Shown here piece by piece: positions 1,939 to 54,893 of a stretch of 64,000 nucleotides of DNA (the stretch's first letter is position 1; each line of letters opens with the position of its first letter). The translations under genes were made by a program, and so were the position numbers. The notes beneath the pieces were generated by a model. The model ran no database searches. It was not told the DNA's origin and was given only the letters and a program-made list of their open reading frames with translations. Source of the stretch: Lachnospiraceae bacterium (GTDB lineage: Bacteria; Bacillota; Clostridia; Lachnospirales; Lachnospiraceae); NCBI GenBank assembly GCA_028696165.1, contig JAQVHQ010000011.1, forward strand, positions 1,866 to 65,865, given 5' to 3'.

Positions 1939-3702
1939 CTACATCCGCTCTGGGACTTCAAATCCCAGCACATCTACACATTTTTCCAAAATGTCGCGGC
2001 AGAGTATCAATAACTGGATCCATGATTTCTGCTGTTCTTCATTCTCCTCTGACAATATCTTAGTCTCATGATAAAAATGATTAAAAGCATTTGCCACATC
2101 ATAGATATAGGCACAAACCTTATGTGGAGCTTTATCTGCAAATGCACCTTCTATCACGCTTCCGTATTTCGCCATTTCCATCATCAGCGCTTTCTCACTG
2201 TCACTGGCTGCTGGTAAAATAGTACCTTCCGGCAGTTCTTTTGTCTCCATATATTTGTTTAAGATAGATTTAATTCTAACAGTTGTATATAAAATATATG
2301 GGCCGGTATCTCCCTCGAAAGAAGTGAACCGCTCAATATCAAAGATATAATCTTTTGATGCCTGGTTAGATAAATCGCCATATTTAATCGCCGCGAGTCC
2401 AACCATCTGTGCTGTCTTTCTGGCGTCTTCTTCCTTTACACTACGGTTATCTACGATTTTCTTGTACATCTCTTCGTTGATTTCTTCCAACAGATGTTCC
2501 AGACGCATGACACCACCTTCACGTGTCTTGAATGGCTTTCCGTCTTTGCCGTTCATAGTACCGAAGCCCAAGAACTGCAGTCTGGTATCCTCTTCTACTA
2601 ACTTGGTCTTTCTTGCACAGCGAAATACCTGTGTAAAATAAAGTTCCTGCCGTTTATCAACCACATAGCAGATCTCATCCGGATGGAACAATTTCATTCT
2701 CTCCACAATAGTCGCCAAATCTGTAGTATTATACAGAGACGCTCCGTCTGATTTTAAAATCATACAAGGTGGAATTTCCTTGGTATCCGTCTCTTCTTTT
2801 ACATCTACCACCAATGCACCCTGATCTAAATGCGCATAGTCATTATCCTTCATATACTGAACCATCTCAGGGATATATGGCTGAGCATCTGATTCCTTCT
2901 TCCATAAATCAAAGGAAACATTTAATTTCTCATAATTTTTCTTCAAATCATTCACAGAAACTGTCATAATATGATTCCAGAGAGCCATGTAGCCTGGTGT
3001 TCCCTGCTGTAAAAGATGCGTGGCTTCCATCGCCTGCGCCTTATACTCTTCATCCACTTTTGATTTTGCACTGGCTGCCGGATAGATTTCCTCTAATTCA
3101 CTGATAGTGAATGGAGCTTCCTTTGGATACTCACCGCTAAAATCCTCCTGAAAATAAACCAGTTCCGGTTTTCTCAACTTCAATTCTGTGATAATCAATC
3201 CCATCTGCAGACCCCAGTCTCCCAGATGCACATCACCAATCATCTTATGTCCCACTGCACGGCCCAGACGTTTGATACTTTCTCCGATAATAGCAGAACG
3301 CAGATGGCCTACATGAAGTGGTTTTGCAACATTCGGTCCACCATAATCCAGCATAATCGTCTGTGGATTCTCTGCCTGAGTTACAGACAGGTAAGTATCT
3401 GCTCTCATTTCATTTAAGTAGGCACTTACAAATGCTTCTTTTAATTTTAAATTAATAAATCCCGGATTTACTGCTTCCACACTGGAAAATACTTCGCTGT
3501 CAGCTAACTGTGCTACAACATCATTTGCTATCATAATAGGTGCTTTCTTGTATGCTTTTGCAGCTGCCATCGCTCCGTTACACTGATATTCACACAAGTC
3601 AGGTCTGTTTGAGATACCAACCTTTGCAAACTTTTCATCATATCCTGCTTTTTGAAAAGCGGCAATCATTTCACTGGTGATTTTTTCGCTGATTTTTTTC
3701 AT
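1939..3702 (-). CDS. argS: arginine--tRNA ligase
   Basis: 591-aa ORF with class-I synthetase HIGH-like PLHVGHLRS and ArgRS-wide similarity; start moved to second ATG (3702) because GGAGG lies inside the first codons of the longer ORF. Confidence 0.93.
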   Translation of the reverse strand: MKKISEKITSEMIAAFQKAGYDEKFAKVGISNRPDLCEYQCNGAMAAAKAYKKAPIMIANDVVAQLADSEVFSSVEAVNPGFINLKLKEAFVSAYLNEMRADTYLSVTQAENPQTIMLDYGGPNVAKPLHVGHLRSAIIGESIKRLGRAVGHKMIGDVHLGDWGLQMGLIITELKLRKPELVYFQEDFSGEYPKEAPFTISELEEIYPAASAKSKVDEEYKAQAMEATHLLQQGTPGYMALWNHIMTVSVNDLKKNYEKLNVSFDLWKKESDAQPYIPEMVQYMKDNDYAHLDQGALVVDVKEETDTKEIPPCMILKSDGASLYNTTDLATIVERMKLFHPDEICYVVDKRQELYFTQVFRCARKTKLVEEDTRLQFLGFGTMNGKDGKPFKTREGGVMRLEHLLEEINEEMYKKIVDNRSVKEEDARKTAQMVGLAAIKYGDLSNQASKDYIFDIERFTSFEGDTGPYILYTTVRIKSILNKYMETKELPEGTILPAASDSEKALMMEMAKYGSVIEGAFADKAPHKVCAYIYDVANAFNHFYHETKILSEENEEQQKSWIQLLILCRDILEKCVDVLGFEVPERM

Positions 3703-3940
3703 CTTATCCTCCATATTTTATCCTATTTTTATTTTAATAATTTTACATTTTTATACATCCTGTCATTCATACTTCTGAATCCAGTCTATCTTACAGTATA
3801 ACATTTTCTTATTCTATTGAAAAGTATTTCGTTTTAGTGATTTTGCATCAATTTTATCAGAATTCTCATTCCGGTCTGCATAAATTGCATTTTTTCAAAG
3901 GCTTCCTATATGCAGGCACCTAAAAAATGCATAGCAACTT

Positions 3941-4028: not shown

Positions 4029-4901
4029 CTAATCTGCCAGTTTCTTCGTACAGGTTATGGCTATCGCGCCAGGTCCTATATGGCAGGAGATGCTCAGAGA
4101 CAATGGATTAACCACGATATCATGCTGTGGATAGAGCTTTTGCACTTCCTCTTTCCAGCTTTCTATCTCTGTACGGTCTGTTCCTGAAAATGCCATGGCA
4201 ATATGCATATTATCAGCATTCTCAGTTGCCTGGAACCGCTCTGTCATATCCTTGTGAATCGCATCTAACATGGTAGACTTTGCTGCCTTTAAAGTTCTGC
4301 TCTTTGCATAAGCATCAAGTTTTTCTCCCTGTATCTGTAAAACCGGCTTCAAACGAAGCAAAGTTCCCAGTGCTGCAGCTGCCGGTGTGATTCTTCCGCC
4401 TTTTTTTAAATAATACAGCGTATCCAATGTAATATAAATGCTTGAATCAGCGGCGGTATCTTCCAGATATCGGCGGATTTCTCTGGCGCTTGTCCCTGCA
4501 TCCGCCATGGTTTTCGCATCTATGGCCGACTGTCTCTGAGTGACAGATATACGCTTATTATCCACTACCTGAATTTTCCCATCGTAATCCTGAGCCAGCG
4601 CAATAGCTGTCTGACAGGAACTGCTCAATCCACTGGACATAGGGATATGAACGATTTCATCATATTCCTTTAACAAATTTTCCCACAATTCTGTCACATC
4701 TGCAATTGAGGGCATAGATGTTGAAATCTCAGCATTTTCACCTAGGTATTTATAAAACTCTTCCTGAGATAATGTAAGTTCCTCATAAAATAATTCTTCA
4801 TTAATATAAAATGGCATCGGTATTACATAAATGCCTAATTCTTTCGCTTCTGCCTGTGTGATTCCGCTATTGCTGTCTGTTACAATTGCTATTTTCCCCA
4901 T
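4029..4901 (-). CDS. DegV family fatty-acid-binding protein
   Basis: 290-aa ORF starting MGKIAIVTDSNSGITQAEAKELGIYVIPMPF, typical DegV N-terminus and length. Confidence 0.85.
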   Translation of the reverse strand: MGKIAIVTDSNSGITQAEAKELGIYVIPMPFYINEELFYEELTLSQEEFYKYLGENAEISTSMPSIADVTELWENLLKEYDEIVHIPMSSGLSSSCQTAIALAQDYDGKIQVVDNKRISVTQRQSAIDAKTMADAGTSAREIRRYLEDTAADSSIYITLDTLYYLKKGGRITPAAAALGTLLRLKPVLQIQGEKLDAYAKSRTLKAAKSTMLDAIHKDMTERFQATENADNMHIAMAFSGTDRTEIESWKEEVQKLYPQHDIVVNPLSLSISCHIGPGAIAITCTKKLAD

Positions 4902-5011: not shown

Positions 5012-5021
5012 GTTCAAAGAA

Positions 5022-5176
5022 ACACGCTAGGGGCGCTTTTAGCTGAGATTGTTAGATAAATTAACAGACCCTCATTACTTGAACCGGATAATACCGGCGT
5101 AAGGAAGCTTATTGATAAAATATCCATTATCAAAAAGTCAAAGCACCCTCCACGTGAAAACGAAGGAGGTTTTTTT
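5022..5176 (+). promoter_or_regulatory. TPP (thi-box) riboswitch with terminator/RBS-sequestering hairpin
   Basis: CTAGGGGCGC...GCTGAGA...ACCCTCATTACTTGAACCGGATAATACCGGCGTAAGGAAGC matches thi-box core; expression platform CCTCC(5147-5151)/GGAGG(5165-5169) plus T7 run directly before ATG 5177. Confidence 0.85.
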
Positions 5177-5842
5177 ATGTTTTCATTTCTTGTTAACGTA
5201 GACGGCGGATTGACCACAGCCGGTTATGCCGTATCCATCATCGCAGCCATCGTGCTGCTGCTTGCTGCATGTTTTCTTGCAGGCAAGGTATCTAATTCTA
5301 AAAAGATGAGTGCCAAACAGATTACTTTCTGTGCGGTTGCCCTGGCACTGGCATTTGTCACTTCTTATCTGAAAATTTTCCCGCTTCCTTTTGGCGGCAG
5401 TGTGACTTTATTCAGCATGCTGTTTATCGTACTGATTGGTTACTGGTATGGGATTAAAGTTGGTATTCTTACCGGTTTTGCTTATGGTATCCTGCAGTTT
5501 GTCCAGGAACCCTATGTACTATCACTGTTCCAGGTATGCTGTGATTACCTTTTGGCATTTGCTGCACTGGGATTATCCGGACTCTTTACTAAGTCTAAAA
5601 ATGGACTTTTGAAAGGATATCTTGTGGCGATTTTTGCCCGCGGGTTCTTCCATGCTTTAGGCGGCTACCTGTACTGGATGTCCTATATGCCGGAGAACTT
5701 CCCAAAATCGCTGACTGCTGTATATCCTATCGTTTACAATTACAGCTATATCCTGGCAGAAGGAGTTATAACCATTATTGTCATCAGTATACCTGCAGTT
5801 AAGAAAGCATTGGAACAGGTAAAACAGACTGCACTTAGTTAA
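5177..5842 (+). CDS. thiT: thiamine transporter, ECF S-component ThiT-like
   Basis: 221-aa polytopic membrane ORF directly behind TPP riboswitch; GGSVTLFSML motif resembles ThiT/YuaJ family. Confidence 0.7.
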   Translation: MFSFLVNVDGGLTTAGYAVSIIAAIVLLLAACFLAGKVSNSKKMSAKQITFCAVALALAFVTSYLKIFPLPFGGSVTLFSMLFIVLIGYWYGIKVGILTGFAYGILQFVQEPYVLSLFQVCCDYLLAFAALGLSGLFTKSKNGLLKGYLVAIFARGFFHALGGYLYWMSYMPENFPKSLTAVYPIVYNYSYILAEGVITIIVISIPAVKKALEQVKQTALS

Positions 5843-10278: not shown

Positions 10279-10426
10279 AATTTCTCCCTTACCAAAACTA
10301 CAATATAACAATAAAATCATATGTAACCATTCTCATGATAAGCTCATACATAATATAAACTTTCATCCAACTTCCACTCTATCTTACAACGAAACAAACG
10401 TTCGCACAAGCATTTTCTAATATTAA

Positions 10427-10795
10427 CCCCCATACTCCCTCAATCCCCGTGCCATTAAAATGGCACGCGCCCTCACTGCCACCCACAATCCAAGCCCCTA
10501 ACCCCCATGCTCCCTCAACCCCCGTGCCATCAAAATGGCACGCGCCCTCACTGCCACCCACAATCCAAGCCCCTAACCTCCATACTCCCTCAACCCCGTG
10601 CCAAAATGGCACGTGCCCTCACTGCCACCCACAATCCAAGCCTCTAACCCCCATACTCCCTCAACCCCCGTGCCATCAAAATGGCACGCGCCCTCACTGC
10701 CACCCACAATCCAAGCCCCTAACCCCCATACCACCTCAACCCCCGTGCCATCAAAATGGCACGTGCCCTCACTGCCACCCACACAACCTCCCTCA
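10427..10795. repeat. 75-bp tandem repeat, 4 full plus 1 partial unit, C-rich on + strand, each with an internal 8-bp hairpin
   Basis: units at 10427, 10502, 10577 (71 bp), 10648, 10723; unit CCCCCATACTCCCTCAACCCCCGTGCCATCAAAATGGCACGCGCCCTCACTGCCACCCACAATCCAAGCCCCTAA. Confidence 0.95.
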
Positions 10796-10828
10796 ACCAC
10801 CACAACCCCGCCTCCAGCCCGAACCCAG

Positions 10829-11107
10829 CCAGCCAGAAAGCCTTACTAAGTAGCAAAACAGGCGGTGTTTATGGATATCAGAATCAGCTGATGAGTATCT
10901 TAGTGCGAAGGCACCCAAGTTTATGGGACGAAATGGTGCTTACAAAGCACCATTTCGAAGGCATCCTGAGGCAGGTATGCATCAGCATACCTGCCGAATA
11001 TGCCTGATTCCCATAAACTTGGGTGCCTTCACACTTAGATACTCACAGCGCAATGACCTATCCATAAACACCGCCTGCTTTGCTACTTAGTAAGGCTTTC
11101 TGGCTGG
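10829..11107. ncRNA. unclassified ornate structured element, family copy 1 of 3 (strand unresolved)
   Basis: 49-bp outer helix with one mismatch, GCTG/CAGC mini-helix, 35-bp second helix, two inner hairpins, invariant GTATGCATCAGCATAC at 10975-10990; same architecture at 21170 and 52907. Confidence 0.55.
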
Positions 11108-11122
11108 CGTCCCTCCCCCCAT

Positions 11123-11794
11123 TCACCGAAACACCATCTCCTCCACCGTAACAAACTCATACCCCCCTTCCCACAAATCCCTCACAATACGCACTGCCGC
11201 CTCCACCGAAGTCTCAAAAGAATCATGCATCAAAATAATATCCCCACCCTCCACCTGTCTCTCCACCCGTTCCACAATCGCCTCCGTATTCTGAAGCTGC
11301 CAATCCATAGAATCCACACTCCAAAAAACAGGCACCATACACACCGTATACTCCAAATCCTCCTTCCACTCCCCATAAGGCGGCCGCACAAAGCAAGGAT
11401 ACTGCCCCGTAATCTCAAAAATCTGATTACCCGTCCGTTCAATCAATTCTACAGCCTTTTCATCGCCCACCGCTTTCATAGAAACATGCTCATAAGTATG
11501 ATTGCCAATCAAATGTCCGTCCGCCTTCATTTGACGAATCACCTCTTCGTGTCCGGTAATATTTTGCCCAAGCAAAAAGAAGCTGGCTTTTACGCCAAGC
11601 TTCTTAAGTTCTGTTAACAATTCACTTGTATAAACACTGGGACCATCATCAAAAGTAAGAGCAACCTGCATATTCTCTCTCGTAACGGTCATTCCATCTG
11701 TCTGTTCCGTCTTCTGTCCGTAATATCCCGACATATAACATATAAATCCAACTAAAAAAGCCAAAAAGGTTTTATACAAAACGCTCCTCTTCAC
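11123..11794 (-). CDS. polysaccharide deacetylase family protein (NodB domain)
   Basis: 223-aa ORF, N-terminal TM, VALTFDDGP, GNHTYEH, LMHD motifs. Confidence 0.85.
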   Translation of the reverse strand: MKRSVLYKTFLAFLVGFICYMSGYYGQKTEQTDGMTVTRENMQVALTFDDGPSVYTSELLTELKKLGVKASFFLLGQNITGHEEVIRQMKADGHLIGNHTYEHVSMKAVGDEKAVELIERTGNQIFEITGQYPCFVRPPYGEWKEDLEYTVCMVPVFWSVDSMDWQLQNTEAIVERVERQVEGGDIILMHDSFETSVEAAVRIVRDLWEGGYEFVTVEEMVFR

Positions 11795-13904: not shown

Positions 13905-14048
13905 ATAAATTAAGAAATTAAAAATAGGTAGATAGTCAGACTATCCACCTAGTATATGTTTAAGATTTCTCTTATAATCATTACTTTATTAACCCGAGTC
14001 GCTTTGTGCGCTAAGGTGAGAGTGGATACTCTACTTTCTTTACCGAAC
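13905..14048 (-). promoter_or_regulatory. infC-rpmI-rplT leader, probable L20-type autoregulatory leader with attenuator hairpin
   Basis: about 145-nt leader between promoter and infC RBS; attenuator AGGTGGATAG-TCTGA-CTATCTACCT plus ATTTTTA at 13918-13950 (minus sense); position matches Firmicute L20 leaders. Confidence 0.5.
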
Positions 14049-14054
14049 TGTTGT

Positions 14055-14084
14055 ATCTTATCATGGATTGTGGGGTGTTGTCAA
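14055..14084 (-). promoter_or_regulatory. sigma-A type promoter of the infC operon
   Basis: minus sense TTGACA (14079-14084), 18-nt spacer, TAAGAT (14055-14060). Confidence 0.55.
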
Positions 14085-14122
14085 GGGGTGATTTTAAAAA
14101 TATTTTTTTTCCAAGGCGGACG

Positions 14123-14303
14123 CAGCGGTTCCATACGGGCGAAAGTTGCGGAACGTGGGCAACGCCAGGGTGAACTATCTGTTAACTTCGACTAAGACGC
14201 TCGGGAACGCCCTCGCGCCTAAGTCTTCGTAAACAGAGGATTTCACCCTGGCTAAGAGCGCCCACTGAATTGTTCCGCGACTTTCGCCCGTATGGAACCG
14301 CTG
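14123..14303. other. 181-nt nested imperfect palindrome (possible structured RNA, + sense favoured)
   Basis: outer arms CAGCGGTTCCATACGGGCGAAAGTTGCGGAAC / GTTCCGCGACTTTCGCCCGTATGGAACCGCTG (32 bp, one T.G), inner arms GTGGGC..GCCAGGGTGAA / TTCACCCTGGC..GCCCAC. Confidence 0.5.
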
Positions 14304-14413
14304 CTGATTTTGGTTGGGACTTTATTTTTTTCTTTCCTTTGTGGTTATATTTAACGGTTATATTTATTGCTTATTTCCTTATTGCTCTTATATTTTACAA
14401 TTTTTCGTTATAT

Positions 14414-14478
14414 TTATTCTTTACGCCTATTCTTTACGCCTATTCTTTATATCTATTCTTTATATCTATTCTTTATAT
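14414..14478. repeat. 13-bp tandem repeat x5 (CTATTCTTTACGC / CTATTCTTTATAT) in T-rich leader region
   Basis: direct reading of consecutive 13-mers. Confidence 0.9.
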
Positions 14479-18039: not shown

Positions 18040-18343
18040 AGAAGATAAAGCCTCCAGCGGATTGCATTCAACATAAAAAACGCCCCTCCCTGCATTAAAT
18101 ATATACAGGAAGGGGCGACAAATTCGCGGTTCCACCCTTCGTTGTCCTTCATTACCAAAGACATCTCAATTGCGATTATAACGGCATCACCGGACCTGAT
18201 TAAAGGTCACTCCGAGGTGGTCTTCCACTGCTTCCCATCAAGATACTTTCACCATATGTACCTCTCTCTGGTATGTTCCACAACTTACTTTCCTCATCCT
18301 TGTGTTAGCTTATTGAAATATATTATCTATGTTTCTCATCTGT
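18040..18343 (-). promoter_or_regulatory. T-box leader of thrS
   Basis: minus sense AAGGGTGGAACCGCGAATT (T-box sequence, 18131-18149) overlapping terminator GTCGCCCCTTCCTG...CAGGGAGGGGCG plus TTTTTT (18075-18129); stem I with AGAGA and GTGA motifs; candidate specifier ACC (Thr) in GAGUGACCUUU. Confidence 0.85.
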
Positions 18344-18349
18344 ATGTTC

Positions 18350-18378
18350 ATTATAGATGTGTATTTTTAGATTGTCAA
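18350..18378 (-). promoter_or_regulatory. sigma-A consensus promoter of the thrS T-box leader
   Basis: minus sense TTGACA (18373-18378), 17-nt spacer, TATAAT (18350-18355). Confidence 0.75.
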
Positions 18379-18406
18379 GGCACTTTTCGCAGTATTTCCC
18401 AATGGG

Positions 18407-18497
18407 ATTTCTCACGGGTATTTCTCATGGGTATTTTTCATGTACATTTCTCATGCACATTTCTCGCACACATTTCTTGCACATGTTTCTCACGCAC
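18407..18497. repeat. 13-bp tandem repeat x7 (ATTTCTCAYGNRY)
   Basis: ATTTCTCACGGGT ATTTCTCATGGGT ATTTTTCATGTAC ATTTCTCATGCAC ATTTCTCGCACAC ATTTCTTGCACAT GTTTCTCACGCAC, abutting the HD gene stop codon. Confidence 0.9.
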
Positions 18498-18498
18498 A

Positions 18499-19251
18499 TT
18501 ATTTGTAAAAAAGTATGTTACGAATATTTTCCAGAATTTCTATGGTACTAGAATTATCTGATTTAAAACATGCCAATTTCCACATATACCCCTGTTCCAT
18601 TACCATCATCTGGCTTTCCGGATATACAAGTCCGAAAAATAAGGATAAGTGTCCTATCAAATGATCCACCGGTGTCTTCTTCAAACTTCTAAGAACCGTA
18701 TGCCCTTCCAAAAAAGCCTCATACACAGCTGGCGTTACAGATGCCTGTTTTAATTCCTCTGATGTCACATTATATATGTTCTCCATCCCCGTCTCATAAT
18801 TAGCCCGAAAGATATCTATCTTATCCGCATCGCGAATAACCTGAGCAAACAATTTTTCTCTGTTATTCAAATTTACAGGAATCTCATAGCGATTATGACA
18901 GCGTATCGCCATTTCCATCAATTCGTATTTAGAGGTATCCGGTTCAAACCATTCAATCAGGCCCTCTTTAAAAAGAAGATCCGCGCCAAATTCCGCATGG
19001 TCAATCGATTCTGAATCCATAAAAGTATCATATCTTTTCAGCTGTTCGAACCGTCCAATATCATGCAGCATCCCGATCTCCCAGTTTAACTCACAATCAT
19101 CCCCGGAAAGCTTCAGCGACCTTGCAATTCTAGCTGCATTTTCTGCAACTTTCTTTGTATGAATATATTTCAATTGTATCTTAGCATCAGACAAATCATA
19201 CGCCGCAGTATAACTATCAAATGCCTGTTCCACATGCCCTCTTGTATCCAT
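18499..19251 (-). CDS. HD domain-containing phosphohydrolase
   Basis: H..(LHDIGR)..DHAEFGA..RDADKID metal-binding pattern; start at MDTRGH (19251) preceded by GGAGGAAGA. Confidence 0.75.
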   Translation of the reverse strand: MDTRGHVEQAFDSYTAAYDLSDAKIQLKYIHTKKVAENAARIARSLKLSGDDCELNWEIGMLHDIGRFEQLKRYDTFMDSESIDHAEFGADLLFKEGLIEWFEPDTSKYELMEMAIRCHNRYEIPVNLNNREKLFAQVIRDADKIDIFRANYETGMENIYNVTSEELKQASVTPAVYEAFLEGHTVLRSLKKTPVDHLIGHLSLFFGLVYPESQMMVMEQGYMWKLACFKSDNSSTIEILENIRNILFYK

Positions 19252-19327
19252 TCTTCCTCCATCTTGACATAGGAGCAATCAACATAAACAATACGAACAG
19301 TCGAAATCTGCCTCGTTGCTTTTGCTA

Positions 19328-19432
19328 CTACTACTTTTATATCTACTACTTTTATATCTACTACTTTTACTCCTGTTGCTTTTACTCTTGTTGCTTTTAC
19401 TCTTGTTGCTTTTACTCTTGTTGCTTTTTCAC
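19328..19432. repeat. 15-bp tandem repeat x7 (CTACTACTTTTATAT drifting to TTGTTGCTTTTACTC)
   Basis: seven consecutive 15-mers read directly. Confidence 0.9.
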
Positions 19433-19689
19433 CATAACCACATTCATGATACAACAAGCTGCCCCACCTTTCAGCAAAAATACTCCTGTTCTCAATAAAA
19501 TTTTTATTACTTTTCATTAGACGTCTTAAGCACCTACATCATCAAACGAACCAAGTATATCATCCATAATAAAATTTTTCAACACCACCAACTCACCTCA
19601 GATAAGTTAGCGGTTTAACTGCATACTTCTTATAATTCACAACTCCGCTTTTTACCTTTCGCCTTATATCATACAGCTTAACTCTGCAC

Positions 19690-20760
19690 ATGAACTTCCC
19701 ATCCACCACTACGTATCATATTGGATATTTTTTCTTCTACATATGTACTTTTCTCTGGCCTTTACGTATCAAATTAGACAAACTTGCTTCTGTGCACGTA
19801 CTCCCCACCGGCTTTTACGTATCATATTAGACAAACTTGCTTCTGGATACGTACTCCCCGCCGACTTTTACGTATCATTTCGGCATTTCTTACTTCTGAA
19901 TACGTACTTGCATCCTGAATTTACGTGTCATTTCGGGCTTTTTTGCTTCTAGATACGTACCTGCAGCCTGAATTTACGTATCATTTCGGACTTTCTTGCT
20001 TCTGGATACGTACCTGCAGCCTGTATTTACGTGTCATTTCGGACTTTCTTGCTTCTGGATACGTACCTGCAGCCTGTATTTACGTGTCATTTCGGACTTT
20101 CTTGCTTCTGGATACGTACCTGCAGCCTGTATTCACGTGTCATTTCGGACTTTTTTGCTTCTGGATACGTACCTGCATCCTGAATTTACGTATCATTTCG
20201 GACTTTCTTGCTTCTGGATACGTACCTGCAGCCTGAATTTACGTGTCATTTCGGACTTTCTTGCTTCTGGATACGTACCTGCAGCCTGTATTTACGTGTC
20301 ATTTCGGACTTTCTTGCTTCTGGATACGTACCTGCAGCCTGTATTCACGTGTCATTTCGGACTTTTTTGCTTCTGGATACGTACCTGCAGCCTGTATTTA
20401 CGTGTCATTTCGGACTTTCTTGCTTCTGGATACGTACCCGCACCCTGAATTTACGTGTCATTTCGGACTTTCTTGCTTCTGGATACGTACCTGCAGCCTG
20501 TATTCACGTGTCATTTCGGACTTTTTTGCTTCTGGATACGTACCTGCAGCCTGAATTTACGTATCATTTCTATATTTTTTGCTTCTGGATACGTACTCCC
20601 ATCCTGTTTATACGTATCATTTCGACATTTTTCATTTCTGGATACGTACTCCCATCCTGTTTATACGTATCATTTCGACATTTTTCATTTCTGGATACGT
20701 ACCTGCATCCTGAATTTACGTATCATTTCGGACTTTCTTGCTTTTGGATACGTACTCCCA
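19690..20760. repeat. 53-bp satellite, about 20 units, 18 well-phased units from 19796 to 20749
   Basis: unit ACGTACCTGCAGCCTG[T/A]ATT[T/C]ACGT[G/A]TCATTTCGGACTTT[C/T]TTGCTTCTGGAT; degenerate units at both edges. Confidence 0.97.
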
Positions 20761-20937
20761 TTCAATATTCACCTATCAAACAGCCAACTTCCTTATATGT
20801 ACATGCAAGAACAATCTTTTTTCATAGCAATAGCTATACAAACCTTCCAATTCCCACATTCACCCACAAACTCAGCTTTTAACCATCCTACATCCACAGG
20901 CCCCGTGCCCACGGCACGCGATTTTCCACCACAACCT

Positions 20938-21140
20938 AATCCCCTCGCACAACACAAATCCCCCTCTCAACACAATCCTCTTCACAACACAAATCCCCCT
21001 TCACACCGCAATCCCCTTCACACCGCAATCCCCTTCACACCGCAATCCCCTTCACACCGCAATCCCCTTCACACCGCAATCCCCTTCACAACACAATCCC
21101 CTTCACACCGCAATCCCCTTCACAACATATATCCCTCCCC
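20938..21140. repeat. 18-bp C-rich tandem repeat, about 10 units (CACACCGCAATCCCCTTC)
   Basis: five perfect units 21002-21091 flanked by degenerate ones; GGGG every 18 nt on the minus strand. Confidence 0.9.
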
Positions 21141-21169
21141 ACCACCACAGCCAACACCGTCCATCCCAT

Positions 21170-21460
21170 CCGTAAGACTTTACAGCCGGCCAAAAGGATG
21201 GGGAAACTGCTGCTTTTCCCGGTCATAAAATGCGCTGATGAACTTCTTAGGGCGAAAGAGCCGACTACACAGGAATGAAAGGTGTTTACCAAAACACCTT
21301 TCAAAGGCACCCTGAAGGTTGTATGCATCAGCATACAGCCTGAATGTGCCTGGCTTCCTGCGTAGTCGGCTCTTTCACCCTTAGAAGTTCACAGCAAATG
21401 TTCCTGACCGGAAAAAGCAGCAGCTTCCCCATCCTTTTGGCCGGCTGTAAAGTCTTACGG
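21170..21460. ncRNA. unclassified ornate structured element, family copy 2 of 3
   Basis: 35+21-bp outer helix, GCTG/CAGC, 35-bp P2 with T.T and C.A mismatches, hairpin loop TTACCAAA, invariant GTATGCATCAGCATAC at 21321-21336. Confidence 0.55.
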
Positions 21461-21490
21461 ATGAACACACCCCACCTAACCTTCAACCCA

Positions 21491-22042
21491 CTACTTTCTC
21501 AAATAAGCCTCGCGCCCCTCTTCATAAAGATTCCTACCCTCGCAGTCAATAATAACCACCAAAGGCATATCCTCCACATAAAGCTTCCGCAAAGCCTCCG
21601 CACCCAAATCCTCATAAGCAATCAACTCACACTTCTTAATGCACTTTGCCAACAAAGCTCCCGCTCCGCCAATTGCACCAAAATAAACACCACTATACTT
21701 CTTCATGGCATCCACCACTTCCGGCAATCTTGCTCCTTTTCCAATCATTCCTCGGGCACCAACAGACATCATCGTCGGTGCATAAGCATCCATACGCCCG
21801 CTGGTAGTAGGTCCAGCTGATCCAATCACCTGACCCGGTTTTGCAGGTGTCGGTCCCACATAATAAATCGTAGCATCCGCAGGATCAAAAGGAAGCTTCT
21901 CCCCTCTCTCCAATGCCTCACACATCCTCTTGTGCCCTGCATCTCGAGAAGTATAAATAGTCCCTGTCAGATAAACACTATCCCCTGCATGCAGTGTCTT
22001 TGCCAACTCTTCCGTCAATGGAAGCTGTATATGTCTCTCCAT
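21491..22042 (-). CDS. class-I (Fe-S) fumarate hydratase / L(+)-tartrate dehydratase family, beta subunit
   Basis: 183-aa ORF, GTIYTSRDAGHKR, GPTTSGRMD, GKG motifs of FumA C-terminal domain proteins. Confidence 0.85.
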   Translation of the reverse strand: MERHIQLPLTEELAKTLHAGDSVYLTGTIYTSRDAGHKRMCEALERGEKLPFDPADATIYYVGPTPAKPGQVIGSAGPTTSGRMDAYAPTMMSVGARGMIGKGARLPEVVDAMKKYSGVYFGAIGGAGALLAKCIKKCELIAYEDLGAEALRKLYVEDMPLVVIIDCEGRNLYEEGREAYLRK

Positions 22043-27718: not shown

Positions 27719-29389
27719 CTATACATACAAATATGCAATCGCCTCATAAGGACGCAGCATTTTGTCTTCCATTGTTCCATCATTTTCATAATTGGAAATA
27801 TACAGTTCAGACTTCTTAACTTCAATTTCCTTTGGAAGAGTAAACTTCTGCTCTTCTTTGGTAAAATTCAATACCACAAGCATCTTCTGTTCTCCCAACT
27901 GTCGTGTGTATACATAAAGATCTGGATTTTCTTTATCATATTCACAAAATGAACCATATACCGCCACATCATATTTATGACGCTGCTGAATCAATTTCTG
28001 CATATAATGGAAAATCGAGTCCGAATCAGCCCTGGATTCTGCTGCATTAATCTCGCGATAATTTTCATTCATCTTAAGCCAAGGTTTGCCGGTGGTAAAT
28101 CCACCGTTAGCACTGTCATCCCACTGCATTGGAGTTCTGGCATTATCTCTGCCAATATATTCAATTGCTTTCATCAATTCATCCGGATTAGCATTGCCGT
28201 TGACTACTCTGTCATCCCAGGCGTTTCGTATCTGGATGTCCTGATAATCTTCAATGGAATCATACTTCACATTTGTCATGCCCAGTTCTTCACCCTGATA
28301 GATGTAAGGCGTACCCTGCATAGTCATAATCATGGTATAAAGCATTTTAGCACTTTCCTTGCGATACTTTTTGTCATCACCCCAACGGGATACACTTCTT
28401 GGCTGGTCATGATTGGCAAGATAGAGACTGTTCCATGCCAATCCTTCCAATTCTGTCTGCCATTTACTCATAATCTTCTTAAATGCCACCAGGTCAAATG
28501 GTCTCAGATTGAATTTATCTCCGTTAATATACTCCATAGTAACATGTTCAAATTGAAAAACCATGCTCATCTCACTGCCATCTGCAGCTGCATATTTCTT
28601 TGCTTCTTCTACGGTCACTGCAGAAGTCTCTCCAACAGTCATCATGTCTTTATATTTTGACATAACCTTCTGGTTCATCTCATTGAAAAATTCATGAATT
28701 CTTGGTCCATTTTGATAATGTTCTTCACCTATGTTTGCTCGGTCTGTCTTTCCGTCCGGAAGTCCTGGTGTCTTAGAATACATACTTGCCACATCAAGTC
28801 TGAATCCATCTACACCTTTCTGCATCCAGAAGTCCATGATATCATATACTTCATCTCTTACTACCGGATTTTCCCAGTTTAAGTCTGGTTGTTTCTTAGA
28901 GAAGATATGCAGGTAATACTGGTCTGTATTCTCATCATATTCCCATGCACTTCCGGAGAATCTTGAGGTCCAGTTGTTTGGCTCTTTACCATCTTTTCCA
29001 TCGCTCCACATATAGTAGTCACGATATGGGTTATCTTTTGATTTTCTGCTCTCTACAAACCATTTGTGTTCATCTGACGAATGATTCACAACTAAGTCTA
29101 CAATCAGGCGAATCCCACGTTTGTGCATTTCTTCCTGCATCTCATCAAAATCTTCCATGGTTCCAAATTCTTCCATGATGCCTCTGTAATCAGAGATATC
29201 ATAACCATTGTCGTCATTTGGCGATTTGTAATGAGGAGACAGCCATACTGCGTCAATTCCTAATTCCTGTAAATAATCCAGACGGGAAGTAATTCCCTTT
29301 AAATCTCCGATTCCATCACCGTTGGAATCCTGAAAACTCCTTGGATATATTTGATATACTACCGCTTCTTTCCACCATTTTTTGTCCAT
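27719..29389 (-). CDS. GH13 oligo-1,6-glucosidase / alpha-glucosidase (paralog 1)
   Basis: 556-aa ORF; WWKEAVVYQIYPRSF, DLVVNHSSDEH, GFRLDVA, VGE, NHDQPR conserved GH13 regions. Confidence 0.9.
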   Translation of the reverse strand: MDKKWWKEAVVYQIYPRSFQDSNGDGIGDLKGITSRLDYLQELGIDAVWLSPHYKSPNDDNGYDISDYRGIMEEFGTMEDFDEMQEEMHKRGIRLIVDLVVNHSSDEHKWFVESRKSKDNPYRDYYMWSDGKDGKEPNNWTSRFSGSAWEYDENTDQYYLHIFSKKQPDLNWENPVVRDEVYDIMDFWMQKGVDGFRLDVASMYSKTPGLPDGKTDRANIGEEHYQNGPRIHEFFNEMNQKVMSKYKDMMTVGETSAVTVEEAKKYAAADGSEMSMVFQFEHVTMEYINGDKFNLRPFDLVAFKKIMSKWQTELEGLAWNSLYLANHDQPRSVSRWGDDKKYRKESAKMLYTMIMTMQGTPYIYQGEELGMTNVKYDSIEDYQDIQIRNAWDDRVVNGNANPDELMKAIEYIGRDNARTPMQWDDSANGGFTTGKPWLKMNENYREINAAESRADSDSIFHYMQKLIQQRHKYDVAVYGSFCEYDKENPDLYVYTRQLGEQKMLVVLNFTKEEQKFTLPKEIEVKKSELYISNYENDGTMEDKMLRPYEAIAYLYV

Positions 29390-29472
29390 GATTTTTCCTT
29401 TCTAATCGCACAATATTTTATTCAATCACACCCCGGTGCATTATACCCTCAGTTCATCACACATACTAATAA

Positions 29473-29625
29473 CATACAGATACCGATAGCATACACATAC
29501 CGATAGCATACAGATACCGATAGCATACACATACCAATAGCATACAGATACCAATAGCATACACATACCAATAGCATACACATACCAATAGCATACACAT
29601 ACCAATAGCATACACATACTAATAT
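29473..29625. repeat. 17-bp tandem repeat x9 (CATACA[G/C]ATACC[G/A]ATAG) between the GH13 paralogs
   Basis: units phased from 29473; the first six alternate CAG/CAC giving a 34-bp higher-order period. Confidence 0.9.
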
Positions 29626-29734: not shown

Positions 29735-31405
29735 TTATTCATACAAATATACAACAGCTTCATAAGGCCGAAGACATTTATCCCCTATTTTCCCATCATT
29801 TTCATAGTTCGATATGTATAATTGTGATTTATTATATTCTATTTCTTTTGGTAAATGAAATTCTTTTTCTTCACCTGTAAAGTTCAATACAACAAGCATT
29901 TTCTGACCATCAAGCTCACGTGTATACACATAGAGCGATTCATTTTCCTCATCATACTCGTGAAAAGAGCCATATACAGCCACTGCGTTTTGCTTTCTCA
30001 GTTTTATCAATTTCTGCATATAATGGAAAATAGAATCTGGATTATCCAGTGATTCTTTTGCATTAATCTCTGTATAATTCCTGTTCATCTTCAGCCAGGG
30101 AGTTCCTGTCGTAAATCCACCATTCTTACTGTCATCCCACTGCATTGGTGTCCTGGCATTATCCCGTGAGATGACGCTGAGTGTATCCAGCATTTCTTCC
30201 GGCGACACCATACCAGTTAATACGCGTTCTTTCCAGATAGTCCGGACATTTATATCCTGATAGTCTTCAATGGATGTATACCCTGCATTGGTCATTCCCA
30301 GTTCCTCTCCCTGATAAATATAGGGTGTTCCCTGCATGGTCATTATCATCGTATACAGCATTTTAGCACTTTCATTTCGATACTTCTTGTCATCGCCCCA
30401 TCGGGACACACTTCTTGGCTGGTCATGATTTGCCAGATACAGGCTGTTCCATGCCAGACCGTCTAATTCAGTCTGCCACTTACTCATGACTTTTTTAAAT
30501 TCGCTCATCTTAAATGGTTTCAAGCTGTATCTGTCACCGTTTTTATATTCAAGATTAACATGCTCGAACTGAAAAATCATTCCCAATTCCTGCCTGTCTG
30601 TTCCAGAATACTTTTTGGCATCCTCTACAGTTACCGCTGCAATCTCACCAACTGTCATAATGTCATCATATTGAGATAACACTTTTTCATTCATCTCTTT
30701 AAAATATTCATGAATTCTTGGTCCATGGAGATAATATTCCGCTCCCACGTTAACATTATTCAAATCTCCATCAGGCAGTCCCTCGGTTTTAGAATAAGAA
30801 CCTGCGGCGTCTAATCGAAATCCATCCACACCTTTTTCGATCCAGAACTTCATCATATCATAGATTTCATCTCTGACTTTAGGATTTTCCCAATTCAAAT
30901 CAGGCTGTTTTGGAGAATATAAATGCAGATAGTATTGATTTGTCTCCCCATTATAATCCCACGCTTTTCCAGAAAATCTGGACACCCAGTTGTTCGGCTC
31001 TTTTCCATCCTTGCCATCACGCCATATATAGTAATCTCTATATGGATTATCTTTGGATTTCTTGCTTTCCACAAACCACTCATGCTCATCTGAAGTATGA
31101 TTCACCACTAAATCAATGACCAGATGAATACCACGTTTACGCATTTCCTGCTGCATCTCGTCAAAATCTTCCATCGTACCAAATTCGTCCATGATATCCC
31201 GGTAATCCGAGATATCATAGCCATTATCATCATTTGGCGACTTAAAATGCGGAGACAACCACACAGTATCAATACCTAATTCCTGCAAATAATCTAATCT
31301 GGAAGTAATTCCCTTCAAATCTCCAATTCCATCTCCGTTGGAATCCTGAAAACTTCTTGGATATATTTGATATACAACTGCTTCTTTCCACCATTTTCTG
31401 TCCAT
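29735..31405 (-). CDS. GH13 oligo-1,6-glucosidase / alpha-glucosidase (paralog 2)
   Basis: 556-aa ORF colinear with paralog 1, same length, long identical peptide stretches. Confidence 0.9.
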   Translation of the reverse strand: MDRKWWKEAVVYQIYPRSFQDSNGDGIGDLKGITSRLDYLQELGIDTVWLSPHFKSPNDDNGYDISDYRDIMDEFGTMEDFDEMQQEMRKRGIHLVIDLVVNHTSDEHEWFVESKKSKDNPYRDYYIWRDGKDGKEPNNWVSRFSGKAWDYNGETNQYYLHLYSPKQPDLNWENPKVRDEIYDMMKFWIEKGVDGFRLDAAGSYSKTEGLPDGDLNNVNVGAEYYLHGPRIHEYFKEMNEKVLSQYDDIMTVGEIAAVTVEDAKKYSGTDRQELGMIFQFEHVNLEYKNGDRYSLKPFKMSEFKKVMSKWQTELDGLAWNSLYLANHDQPRSVSRWGDDKKYRNESAKMLYTMIMTMQGTPYIYQGEELGMTNAGYTSIEDYQDINVRTIWKERVLTGMVSPEEMLDTLSVISRDNARTPMQWDDSKNGGFTTGTPWLKMNRNYTEINAKESLDNPDSIFHYMQKLIKLRKQNAVAVYGSFHEYDEENESLYVYTRELDGQKMLVVLNFTGEEKEFHLPKEIEYNKSQLYISNYENDGKIGDKCLRPYEAVVYLYE

Positions 31406-52550: not shown

Positions 52551-52605
52551 TGAGAGACGGACATTTCGGGAAAAATGTTAGAAGCGGGGGGGATGGCAGG
52601 GGGAC

Positions 52606-52752
52606 GCAGGAGAAGAGACGGGGGCGGGGCAGAAAACGCGTCGTCCTCCTCAGCTGCCGAAACCCCGGGCATGCGGCTCCCGCCTTTGCCCGGCGGCGAT
52701 CTTCGGACTCCTTTGGCTTGACTTTCTGCCCCGCCCCCGTCTCTTCTCCTGC
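52606..52752. repeat. GC-rich 30-bp perfect inverted repeat with 87-nt GC-rich spacer
   Basis: GCAGGAGAAGAGACGGGGGCGGGGCAGAAA (52606-52635) / TTTCTGCCCCGCCCCCGTCTCTTCTCCTGC (52723-52752); spacer holds the nested hairpin CCGGGC...GCCCGG. Confidence 0.9.
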
Positions 52753-52906
52753 TGTTTGTTGGCGATAACTGGGAAAGGCGAGATAACATTTGTTCCCTGG
52801 TGGGGATGCCCTTTGGGTGGTTGCGGGCGTGACTGTGTGGATTGTCTGTTTTTTATATTCGTGATATGTTGTGTTGATAAATATATGCGTACTTAACAAT
52901 AAGCAG

Positions 52907-53193
52907 CCGTAGCACGAAGAACACCCATCTGACTGCGGAAAAGTCGAGTTTTTATGGATATGGGATGAGCTGATATACATCTTGATGCGAAAGAACCGGT
53001 TACAGCCGGGCGACGGGTATTTACCAAAATACCCGTCGAGGACGCTCTGAGGCGTGTATGCATCAGCATACACACCGAATGCGGCCGCTCCCGGCTGTAA
53101 CCGGTTCTTTCACATCTAGATGTATACAGCAAAATCCCCCTATCCATAAAAACCGACTTTCCCGCAGTCAGATGGGTGTTCTTCGTGTTACGG
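52907..53193. ncRNA. unclassified ornate structured element, family copy 3 of 3
   Basis: about 57-bp outer helix, GCTG/CAGC, 36-bp P2 with T.T and C.A mismatches, hairpin loop TTACCAAA, invariant GTATGCATCAGCATAC at 53056-53071. Confidence 0.55.
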
Positions 53194-53198
53194 CGTCC

Positions 53199-54893
53199 TC
53201 ACTCCACCTTCTCCAATCGCCCCACAACAATCTTCCTAAGCATCTCCACCTTCTCTTCAGCCTCTGCTGCATTCTTCCCCCTGGTATAAATATAAATCTT
53301 AATCTTTGGTTCCGTTCCCGAAGGTCTGACTGCAAACCAGCTTCCATCTTCTAATAGAAACTTCAGTACATTTGAAGGCCCTATATCTTCATATCCGTTA
53401 ATATAATCAATTTCCTTTGCCACCTTAATCCCATCATATTCCATTAATGGATTCTCGCGATAGGAAATCATCATACGTTCAATTCTCTTAGCCCCCTCTA
53501 TTCCATCATAAATCAGTGAAATCTGAGCTTCTTTGTAGTATCCATATTGCCTGTAAATATCTTCCAGCACATCTAACAAACTTTTCCCCATCTTTTTATA
53601 ATATGCCGCAGCTTCACACACCAGCATAGAAGTACTTACTCCATCTTTATCTCTCACAGCTTCACTGGGAGCATAACCGATACTCTCTTCATAGCCAAAT
53701 AAATAACGATATCCTTCCTGTTCCATAACCGGAATTTTTCCACAGATATTTTTAAATCCTGTCAGGGACTCATACATCTTTACTCCATGCTGTTTTGCTA
53801 TTTCTTTTCCCAAATCTCCCGTTACGATAGATTTTACCATTGCTCCATTATCAGGAAGACTTCCCTTGGTCAAAAGTCCTTCTAATATATAGTTAATCAG
53901 CAGTACCCCTGCCTGATTTCCATTAATCGGAACATAGTCTCCCTGCTTATTTCTTACTTCCATAGCAAAACGATCGCTGTCTGGATCGGTTGCAATAAGA
54001 ATATCTGCCGATTTTTCCCCGCCTAATTTTTCAGCATATTTGAATGCTTTTGTATCTTCAGGATTCGGATATCCTACCGTAGGAAAGTCTCCGTCCGGGT
54101 GCTCTTGTTCAGGAACCACAGATACATTAGCAAAGCCTCTTCTTTTTAATATCTTTTGCACAGGTATACTTCCAGCTCCATTTAATGGTGTATAGACAAT
54201 AGACACTGTCTTATCAAGATCTTCTTCTCTTGCCATAGCCAGTCCTTCCACCATTTTCAAATAAGCTTCATCCATTTCTTCGCCTAAGTACTCCAACAGA
54301 TTTTTCTCTGCTGCGCTGTCCAATGATATGCTTTTGATATCCTCAAACATATCGACCTGTGTGATTTCTTCTGTCATCCCATCTGCGATATACTCGGCAA
54401 CCTGTGCGCCGTCTTCCCAATAGACTTTGTACCCGTTATATTCTTTGGGATTATGGCTTGCCGTAATATTAATTCCCGCTGATGCACCTGTTTTTCTTAT
54501 GGCAAATGATAGTTCCGGTGTTGGTCTAAGGGATGGAAACAGGTAGACTTTTATGTTATTTCCAGCAAGAATCTGTGCGGCATACTCTGCAAATTCCCGG
54601 GAATGATGGCGGCTGTCGTATGCTATTACTACGCCTTTATGCATACAGTCTTCGCCCTGCTTTTTCATATAGTCAGCAATGCCCTGGGTAGCTTTTCCAA
54701 CGGTATACCTGTTCATCCGGTTAATTCCAGCTCCCATTTTTCCTCTAAGGCCAGCCGTGCCAAAGGATAAGGGTTTATAGAATCTCTCTTTAATCTCCTG
54801 CTCATCCTGCTTGATGGCAAGTAATTCTTTCTTTGTATCAGCATCCAAATTCTTGTTGTTCAGCCATTCTTCATATATCTTTACTGCATCCAT
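53199..54893 (-). CDS. phosphoglucomutase / phosphomannomutase family protein
   Basis: 564-aa ORF; active-site TASHNPKEYNGYK, metal loop ATDPDSDR, GYEESIG. Confidence 0.92.
   Translation of the reverse strand: MDAVKIYEEWLNNKNLDADTKKELLAIKQDEQEIKERFYKPLSFGTAGLRGKMGAGINRMNRYTVGKATQGIADYMKKQGEDCMHKGVVIAYDSRHHSREFAEYAAQILAGNNIKVYLFPSLRPTPELSFAIRKTGASAGINITASHNPKEYNGYKVYWEDGAQVAEYIADGMTEEITQVDMFEDIKSISLDSAAEKNLLEYLGEEMDEAYLKMVEGLAMAREEDLDKTVSIVYTPLNGAGSIPVQKILKRRGFANVSVVPEQEHPDGDFPTVGYPNPEDTKAFKYAEKLGGEKSADILIATDPDSDRFAMEVRNKQGDYVPINGNQAGVLLINYILEGLLTKGSLPDNGAMVKSIVTGDLGKEIAKQHGVKMYESLTGFKNICGKIPVMEQEGYRYLFGYEESIGYAPSEAVRDKDGVSTSMLVCEAAAYYKKMGKSLLDVLEDIYRQYGYYKEAQISLIYDGIEGAKRIERMMISYRENPLMEYDGIKVAKEIDYINGYEDIGPSNVLKFLLEDGSWFAVRPSGTEPKIKIYIYTRGKNAAEAEEKVEMLRKIVVGRLEKVE

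Follow-up and report, generated by a model that had tools for sequence, protein, structure and literature searches.

Long hairpin elements behind genes of a few uncultured Clostridia: a proposed extragenic palindrome family with pairing kept on both strands

Which strand of a long palindrome, if either, is the functional one? The question is raised by a 297-nt interrupted palindrome at positions 21167–21463 of a 64,000-nt stretch of a Lachnospiraceae genome (assembly GCA_028696165.1), the whole of which we call the window. A sequence-only reading of the same element, which it placed at 21170–21460, had treated it as copy 2 of a three-copy family, had noted that its strand cues conflict, and had concluded that the strand could not be settled from sequence alone. 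The three copies do form one family, and the conflict at the level of motifs is real and persists in 16 homologs, but the conclusion was too pessimistic, as an asymmetric foot and the gene context give the element an orientation. Copy 2 is delimited by inverted repeats (I1 and I6) and by its folds, and matches the family profile on the minus strand (nhmmer E 3.7e-53). The canonical GGACGC foot is absent from copy 2 itself, and its strand was assigned via the foot of the family and gene context: the gene for the beta subunit of fumarate hydratase (21491–22042, minus strand) has its stop codon 27 nt upstream of the element in minus sense. A second assembly of the same species (GCA_028692155.1) is identical across copy 2.

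Copy 2 is built from four helical parts. The 59-nt arms of P1 (21167–21225 and 21405–21463) are 97% complementary and contain two A·C-type mismatches in the plus-strand fold (A·C 21206/21424 and C·A 21218/21412). The left side of the P1/P2 junction (21226–21238) carries a conserved GCTGAT, of which GCTG pairs with CAGC at 21393–21396 with one base bulged (alignment column 248, at the start of helix 7). The 37-nt arms of P2 (21239–21275 and 21355–21391) are 92% complementary and hold a conserved CTTAG/CTTAG module with a T·T mismatch at 21248/21382 (A·A in minus sense), a recurrent C·A at 21253/21377 (U·G in minus sense), and an A·C at 21269/21361. P3 (21278–21303; helix 10) closes a conserved loop that reads ACCAAA on the plus strand and UUUGGUAA in minus sense. 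P4 (21306–21352) contains an invariant CTGA/GAAT internal loop, with tandem G·A on the plus strand, and an invariant apical 16-mer (21321–21336); this 16-mer, GTATGCATCAGCATAC, has exactly three occurrences in the window, where 0.06 would be expected. Copy 2 is predicted to fold very stably as plus-strand RNA (MFE –219.6 kcal/mol; z –24.9 versus shuffles), as minus-strand RNA (–233.1 kcal/mol; z –22.6), and as minus-strand DNA (–140.7 kcal/mol; z –24.4).

Multiple results support pairing as the property under constraint. First, in an alignment of 16 copies of this 290-nt type (334 columns; 59% mean column identity), RNAalifold found 118 consensus pairs, 100 of them with compensatory double changes. 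Second, 90.9% of cells in this structure were paired, compared with 66.9% in shuffles and ~42% with slid partners, and the covariation score was 0.658 compared with 0.216; the observed values were reached in 0 of 500 shuffles. Third, the arms within each copy are 91–98% complementary despite the low identity between copies. Pairing is thus actively maintained in each diverged copy, and compensatory change is the means by which structure is kept in every one of them. By contrast with nearly all other helices, the GTATGC/GCATAC stem never covaries, and the six pairs of helix 9 in P4 are without any variation. Read in minus sense, upper P4 is ATTC, five variable bases, GTATGC, (T)TGAT, GCATAC, five variable bases, and TCAG, and is otherwise invariant. 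Apex and foot are constrained at the sequence level. We also considered a kissing interaction between CAUCAGC of the P4 apex and GCUGAUG of the junction, which share 7 nt of complementarity and are both invariant; covariation gave it no support, and the variant apex CAUCAAGC is uncompensated.

Comparison of strains gave no consistent signal of stem hypermutation. A strain variant of copy 2 (L016) differs at 2 of 51 nt of P1 versus 4 of 2170 nt of flanking genes, and a variant of copy 3 (L026) at 0 of 145 nt versus 0.46% in the flank. The two changes in L016 are plus-strand C>T at window positions 21424 and 21434; one repairs the A·C at 21206/21424, and the other makes a T·G.

How widespread are such elements? 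A scan of a genome collection with the P4 apex pattern recovered 11 true copies, ten in the Clostridia MAG SAAH01 (isolate INTA.CYC.029) and one in the Lachnospiraceae MAG JAQVCW01 (isolate STD2_98). The distribution appears narrow, three genomes among 185,579 species representatives, a lower bound because the scan demanded the exact apex. Including copies with the variant apex GTATGC-TTGAT-GCATAC, the superfamily comprises 20 elements of 148–424 nt, all of them intergenic hairpins, and it accounts for all palindromes of more than 90 nt in the window and the SAAH01 and STD2_98 loci; ten loci fetched from other genomes contain none. A solo 5′ half of a 290-nt-type element (L001, 668–765, minus strand; nhmmer E 2e-9, model positions 2–99) looks like a decayed or truncated copy.

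Searches of other collections were negative. The apex pattern matched only feoB coding sequence in metagenomes (L013 and L014), and nothing real in viral contigs; in these two false positives and the one other that pattern scanning produced, from the genome scan (L010), the 16-mer with short flanks encodes G-M-H-Q-H-T. No match was found by blastn against 72,556 plasmids and 50,697 phages. At the gathering threshold, the only Rfam 15 match in the window is a TPP riboswitch elsewhere (5019–5122, plus strand, 68.2 bits, upstream of a plus-strand gene at 5177–5842), and scans of both strands of the elements at permissive E-values gave only sub-threshold microRNA-precursor and snoRNA noise. A literature search for a Clostridia palindrome family returned nothing specific. 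The window is chromosomal, as it carries thrS, infC-rplT, fumAB, and pgm, and thus differs from the plasmid or conjugative-element context of an sso or single-stranded-DNA promoter.

The members of the superfamily are united by an asymmetric foot. Each element is a single long, nearly perfect hairpin whose stems covary freely. On one strand, which we call the G-strand, a G-rich leader is followed by GGACGC(C), then by the stem, and then by (G)GCTGT, with a G/T-rich tail, for example TGTTTGTTGG, behind it. The shared core of the foot, GGACGC(C)...(G)GCTG, is present in 18 of 20 elements; AC-GCC pairs with GGC-T-GT, and the T is bulged. The G-strand is the window minus strand for copies 1–3, and variant feet occur in copy 2 and in L008. 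Three subfamilies keep this foot as their interiors vary, differing in the apical module; the 290-nt type has P3 and P4 with an invariant 34-nt core. A CTAAG/CTAAG module with a central A·A is present in 14 of the 16 290-nt-type copies and in the 185-nt subfamily.

Five superfamily hairpins lie in the window. Copies 1–3 have an identical layout and a single orientation. Copy 1, which includes a foot reading GGACGCC...GGCTGG, spans 10826–11112 (palindrome 10828–11108, minus strand) and starts 14 nt past the stop codon of a polysaccharide deacetylase gene (11123–11794). Copy 3, also with its foot, spans 52906–53198 (palindrome 52906–53194, minus strand); its hairpin starts 4 nt past the stop of a phosphoglucomutase gene (53199–54893), with GGACGCC immediately after the stop codon. 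A 184-nt hairpin of the second subfamily (14119–14304, plus strand; foot GGACGC...GCTG with CTAAG/CTAAG A·A modules) lies in the spacer that precedes the infC promoter and L20 leader and has homologs in the SAAH01 MAG (L003, 7101–7285; L007, 6788–6968). A 148-nt hairpin of a third type (52603–52752, plus strand; foot GGACGC...GCTGTTTGTTGG) is convergent with copy 3. No co-oriented gene precedes either plus-strand hairpin.

The neighborhood has other features. The L20 leader match (13914–14042, minus strand; upstream of infC-rpmI-rplT) scores 50.9 bits, just under the gathering value of 58.7, and a promoter-like site lies at 14084–14055. The thrS leader (18081–18378, minus strand) has a perfect consensus promoter (18378–18350) and a strong terminator-like hairpin (18117–18081), with no T-box match at the Rfam gathering threshold. 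Intergenic tandem arrays are unusually numerous (units of 53 nt ×17, 17 nt ×10, 75 nt ×4.9, and 17 nt ×9.8, with further arrays of 13–15 nt) and occupy 19657–20804, 20930–21135, 10424–10783, 29459–29624, 14394–14478, 18392–18500, and 19315–19428. Three of them are on the G-strand 3′ side of hairpin elements (copy 1, copy 2, and the hairpin at 14119–14304); read in minus sense, the units of 75 nt and 17 nt are rich in G and poor in C, and a small hairpin, CGTGCCAT...ATGGCACG, lies within the 75-nt unit. A 17-nt array also separates two paralogous 556-aa genes (27719–29389 and 29735–31405, minus strand), which are 2016 nt apart and 71–77% identical in nucleotide sequence.

Do the base pairs themselves favor a strand? 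RNA families that act as a single strand show far more G·U than A·C, and an RNA-only constraint should favor G·U on one strand. The sequence-only reading had counted nine A·C or C·A mismatches against two G·T on the plus strand of the three copies, and had taken the excess to favor a minus-strand RNA, in which these mismatches become G·U pairs. Listing isolated mismatches in the plus-strand folds reproduces the count: A·C 10858/11078 and C·A 10906/11031 in copy 1; the four of copy 2 described above, split evenly between P1 and P2 as that reading also had it, together with T·G 21319/21338 in P4; and A·C 52939/53161, C·A 52988/53112, C·A 53053/53074, and G·T 52912/53188 in copy 3. Three of the nine are indeed one recurrent C·A position seen once per copy. 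The excess itself is a small-sample, genome-specific effect that disappears with 16 homologs. Copies in the window lean to minus-sense wobbles, whereas those in SAAH01 lean slightly to plus-sense wobbles, and so the 9:2 ratio is genuine without generalizing.

The same reading had proposed comparing G·U with A·C in a larger alignment, and had held that equal frequencies would argue for a palindrome acting at the DNA level. With 16 homologs the frequencies are nearly equal. Standard pairs fill 90.9% of cells in minus sense and 89.4% in plus sense over identical column pairs, and Watson-Crick pairs alone fill 86.2%. Core helices contain 40 wobbles in minus sense and 32 in plus sense, alongside 22 transversion mismatches and 1010 Watson-Crick pairs; without four recurrent positions the counts are 22, 15, 21, and 982, respectively. 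Per-element symmetric counts give 35 interior G·U pairs on the G-strand and 49 on the C-strand, and, by MFE, 7 of 20 elements fold more stably on the G-strand. By the proposed standard, this near-parity indicates a strand-symmetric pairing constraint and thus points to a DNA-level component.

The recurrent wobble positions divide evenly, two favoring each strand. Columns 105/233 (U·G 9, C-G 3, U-A 2, A-U 1, other 1, with U·G in all three genomes) and 192/198 (U-A 8, U·G 8) act as typical wobble sites when read in minus sense. In P4, columns 143/165 (8 of 16 copies) and 144/164 (7 of 16) act as tandem wobbles on the plus-sense strand, and nearly all of these copies are from SAAH01; the T·G at 21319/21338 of copy 2 is the window example of the first of these positions.

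Motifs had been the case for a plus-strand RNA. As the sequence-only reading maintained, the P4 loop contains tandem G·A in plus sense, and CTGA/GAAT is invariant in 16 of 16 homologs; CUGA opposite GAAU thereby places tandem G·A pairs, whose sheared geometry is assumed, beside a stem as in a k-turn. The likeness to a k-turn (Kt-7 or box C/D type) goes no further, because the loop is symmetric (4×4 in SAAH01; 5×4 in the window copies) and the 3-nt bulge is absent. The resemblance to a C-box at GCUGAUGA, a sequence found in copies 1 and 2, also fails in the family: UGAUGA occurs in just 5 of 16 homologs and RUGAUGA in 0 of 16, because the base before UGAUGA is C or U. Box C/D RNA (RUGAUGA with a CUGA D box) was rejected on these counts, and the last bases of the putative C-box belong to the covarying helix 7. 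A hammerhead reading of CUGAUGA...GAAA was likewise rejected, as stem II cannot form and Rfam returned no match.

The arrangement of genes supplies the orientation that base pairs do not. We scored a gene end as abutting when a co-oriented ORF of at least 80 aa ended at most 80 nt upstream of the G-strand 5′ foot. Such an ORF ends 4–71 nt before the foot in 14 of 20 elements (13 of them at 4–57 nt); the mirror arrangement was found in 1 of 20, with a doubtful ORF of 104 aa (binomial p = 0.001), and with ORFs of at least 120 aa the test gave 11 versus 0. Where a gene ends just upstream, its sense strand is the G-strand; for copies 1–3 that gene encodes a polysaccharide deacetylase, fumarase beta, and phosphoglucomutase, respectively. 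Three convergent ORF pairs (L003, L011, and L012) have one co-oriented element per ORF, and the bias therefore follows genes, with replication direction alone being insufficient. Convergent element pairs also occur in L007 and at 52.6–53.2 kb of the window, but there just one member abuts an ORF end. No abutting gene end was found for six elements (14119, 52603, L005, L007 6236, L008, and L011 2219), and those in L005 and L008 sit upstream of promoters. G-strand flanks are 35–38% G and 11% C. Of the 20 elements, 12 have SD-like pentamers in the G-strand 5′ flank and 9 in its 3′ flank, and the opposite strand has no such pentamer; these properties hold even where local genes run in the opposite direction. 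Promoter scans of both strands found no conserved promoter. Thus, base-pair statistics pick no strand, and the abutting genes suggest minus as the probable sense strand of copy 2.

What do related genomes carry at these positions? The lineage stands apart: outside the species, the closest PGM relative shares 64% identity and has no element, and genomes with FumB homologs of 91–93% identity have different synteny and no element. In two distant relatives without elements, an intrinsic terminator follows fumB (L019, CCACCCTGAAGCTTTGGCCAAAGGGTGGTTTTT) or pgm (L027, AAAAGCCCGGATATTCGGGCTTTTTT), and this comparison shows the element occupying the position of these predicted terminators. Canonical terminators are also used elsewhere in the genome of the window. 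A stable hairpin shortly after a stop codon is present in 14 of 20 elements; a U-tract 3′ of the stem is absent, with a mean of 3.45 T in the first 10 nt and G/T-rich tails.

Taken together, these results lead us to favor, at slightly less than even confidence, a REP/BOX-like family of extragenic palindromes, each co-transcribed in minus sense as a 3′-end hairpin and with Watson-Crick pairing kept on both strands. The family would originally have spread as mobile DNA. Given its position, each element would be transcribed in minus sense together with the upstream gene and form the 3′ end of that mRNA, where so stable a hairpin could impede both read-through and 3′ exonucleases; the invariant apex and foot are candidate protein contact sites. 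Watson-Crick pairing on both strands probably reflects hairpin formation or correction at the DNA level, besides any role as RNA. If the elements do act as 3′-end RNAs, they would stand in for canonical terminators in an uncultured lineage. Several observations count against this explanation: wobble use shows no strand preference and there is no U-tract; a stem of ~120 bp with an invariant apex far exceeds the needs of termination; the tandem G·A loop and purine-rich junction are more RNA-like on the plus strand; six elements follow no gene; and the canonical foot is missing from copy 2.

The strongest rival, which we regard as possible but unlikely, is a single-stranded-DNA element whose hairpin is the substrate of a structure-specific DNA enzyme, such as an HUH/RAYT-type transposase or a recombinase. 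The enzyme would recognize its substrate by the asymmetric foot together with the mismatch modules; RNA would have no part in this, and position and orientation would result from targeting of terminator regions. Equal retention of Watson-Crick pairs on both strands, with G·T and A·C equally rare, is what such an element would predict, and a conserved foot around interior "cargo" that varies over three subfamilies also fits, as do conserved mismatches and bulges that recall the extrahelical bases of attC sites. The loci agree as well: phyletic distribution is narrow, and the window shares no flanking genes with the loci of other genomes, so copies at the different loci of each genome are dispersed rather than orthologous. 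The half-element in L001 is a weak hint. Against mobility by this route, near-identical copies, the mark of recent transposition, are missing at 59% mean column identity, and all diverged copies keep their pairing, which neutral decay of selfish copies would not produce. At convergent pairs, orientation is linked to genes and not to replication. No longer autonomous version with the same foot was found within 6 kb of elements in the sequence examined, and in this limited sampling none of the copies had a transposase or recombinase gene next to it.

Target-site duplications give little help to a single-stranded-DNA element. The longest flanking direct repeat averages 4.4 nt, compared with 4.1 nt in controls, and a general duplication is therefore absent. 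A MITE was rejected on the same ground and because the whole element, not its ends only, is palindromic. Two elements without an abutting gene end are flanked by longer direct repeats, 8 nt in L005 (CCAATACA; 4579–4586 and 4882–4889) and 7 nt in L008 (CCCACAC, flanking 3596–3869). Repeats of at least 7 nt occur in 2.1% of control flank pairs, and the p value for L005 and L008 is ~0.065, a weak hint in favor of mobility; these repeats may be target-site duplications or chance.

A broader and rather unlikely proposal is that the hairpins are substrates of an undescribed structure-specific system of Clostridia, either a single-stranded-DNA class like attC or REPINs or a new class of 3′-UTR RNA. 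An enzyme or RNA-binding protein would read the foot (GGACGCC / GGC-U-GU, with its bulged base) and the CUAAG/CUAAG A·A modules, and a long hairpin with exchangeable apical "cargo" would be installed or maintained directly behind stop codons. Single-stranded-DNA substrates would point to an as yet undescribed enzyme, and a new class of large structured 3′-UTR RNA would have a dedicated protein partner.

Two further rivals are less likely than the single-stranded-DNA element. A double-stranded or cruciform site for a nucleoid- or topoisomerase-type protein, a role in binding or topology once proposed for REP/BIME, would use the 6-N4-6 palindrome GTATGC-NNNN-GCATAC as its operator. We consider it improbable: it accounts for a strand-symmetric pairing constraint and for a GTATGC/GCATAC stem that never covaries when almost all other helices do, but an operator needs neither the non-palindromic center (TGAT; TTGAT in three copies) nor the flanking loop, both of which are invariant, other subfamilies keep the foot without this apex, and a symmetric cruciform leaves the strong gene-linked orientation bias unexplained. 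Least probable of all is a non-coding RNA of the plus strand (C-strand), antisense to the upstream gene and using the P4 tandem-G·A loop and C-rich, G-poor flanks (as an anti-SD-like CCUCC or for Rho loading). In its favor, the tandem G·A of CUGA/GAAU, invariant in all 16 copies, exists in plus sense alone, the P4 tandem wobbles favor plus sense in about half of the copies, the C-strand fold is more stable in 13 of 20 elements, and flanks are G-depleted on that strand. Against it, scans found no conserved promoter, and the transcript would run directly into the 3′ end of the gene upstream. The C-box is unconserved and the loop is no k-turn; the P4 wobbles are nearly confined to one genome; and in 9 of 16 copies the recurrent C·A at columns 105/233 would leave a mismatch.

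To return to the favored reading of a co-transcribed 3′-end hairpin family, how does it compare with known systems? Extragenic palindromes are well known in Proteobacteria and in a few Firmicutes. BOX (boxA-boxB-boxC of Streptococcus pneumoniae), ERIC, and Correia repeats are modular intergenic repeats, transcribed with neighboring genes, in which terminal modules pair around a variable middle into a long, stable hairpin, and BOX occurs in Firmicutes. The elements described here have no sequence similarity to these repeats, whose copies are conserved in sequence rather than covarying, and lack the TIRs with TA duplications of Correia and RUP. Integron attC sites are likewise hairpins defined by structure rather than sequence, with conserved foot motifs and conserved unpaired bases, and follow an ORF in fixed orientation; however, attC sites are 57–141 nt long, have RYYYAAC/GTTRRRY cores, and form cassette arrays beside an integrase, whereas our elements have a GGACGCC/GGCTGT foot, are longer, and are dispersed after housekeeping genes with no integrase nearby. 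Assignment to attC was therefore rejected on core sites, length, and cassette arrays. Rho-independent terminators share the position a few to tens of nucleotides after a stop codon and a G+C-containing hairpin, but have stems of 5–15 bp, compared with a total of ~120 bp here, where there is no U-tract and the apex and foot motifs are conserved.

The closest likeness is to the REP/BIME and REPIN sequences of Enterobacteria and Pseudomonas, which are extragenic palindromes that form hairpins in single-stranded DNA or mRNA, lie mostly at gene 3′ ends, and carry a short foot motif. REP elements reportedly act as context-dependent terminators and as stabilizers of upstream mRNA (bioRxiv 10.64898/2026.03.23.713779), and REPINs persist through vertical inheritance (PMC3116915). 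The elements studied here are also extragenic palindromes with a foot motif but are not near-identical short units: REPs are ~20–40 nt and REPINs ~100 nt, with highly similar copies, whereas our elements are 148–424 nt, have three to four helices, and are ~59% identical with pervasive compensatory change. No RAYT (Y1 HUH) gene was seen in the sequence covered, which amounts to 64 kb from this genome and a further ~88 kb from the SAAH01 and STD2_98 MAGs. The elements also break short-read assemblies, as contigs from other samples (L016–L018 and L026) end at or inside them. Extragenic palindromes at gene ends are thus already known as a kind (PMC3116915; bioRxiv 10.64898/2026.03.23.713779). What is distinctive here is a combination of much greater length, multiple helices, individually covarying copies, and one foot across differing interiors. 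Three traits are unusual: each copy is conserved as structure, with 100 of 118 pairs covarying despite little common sequence; one asymmetric foot recurs across subfamilies whose interiors differ; and the elements fill the terminator position behind housekeeping genes.
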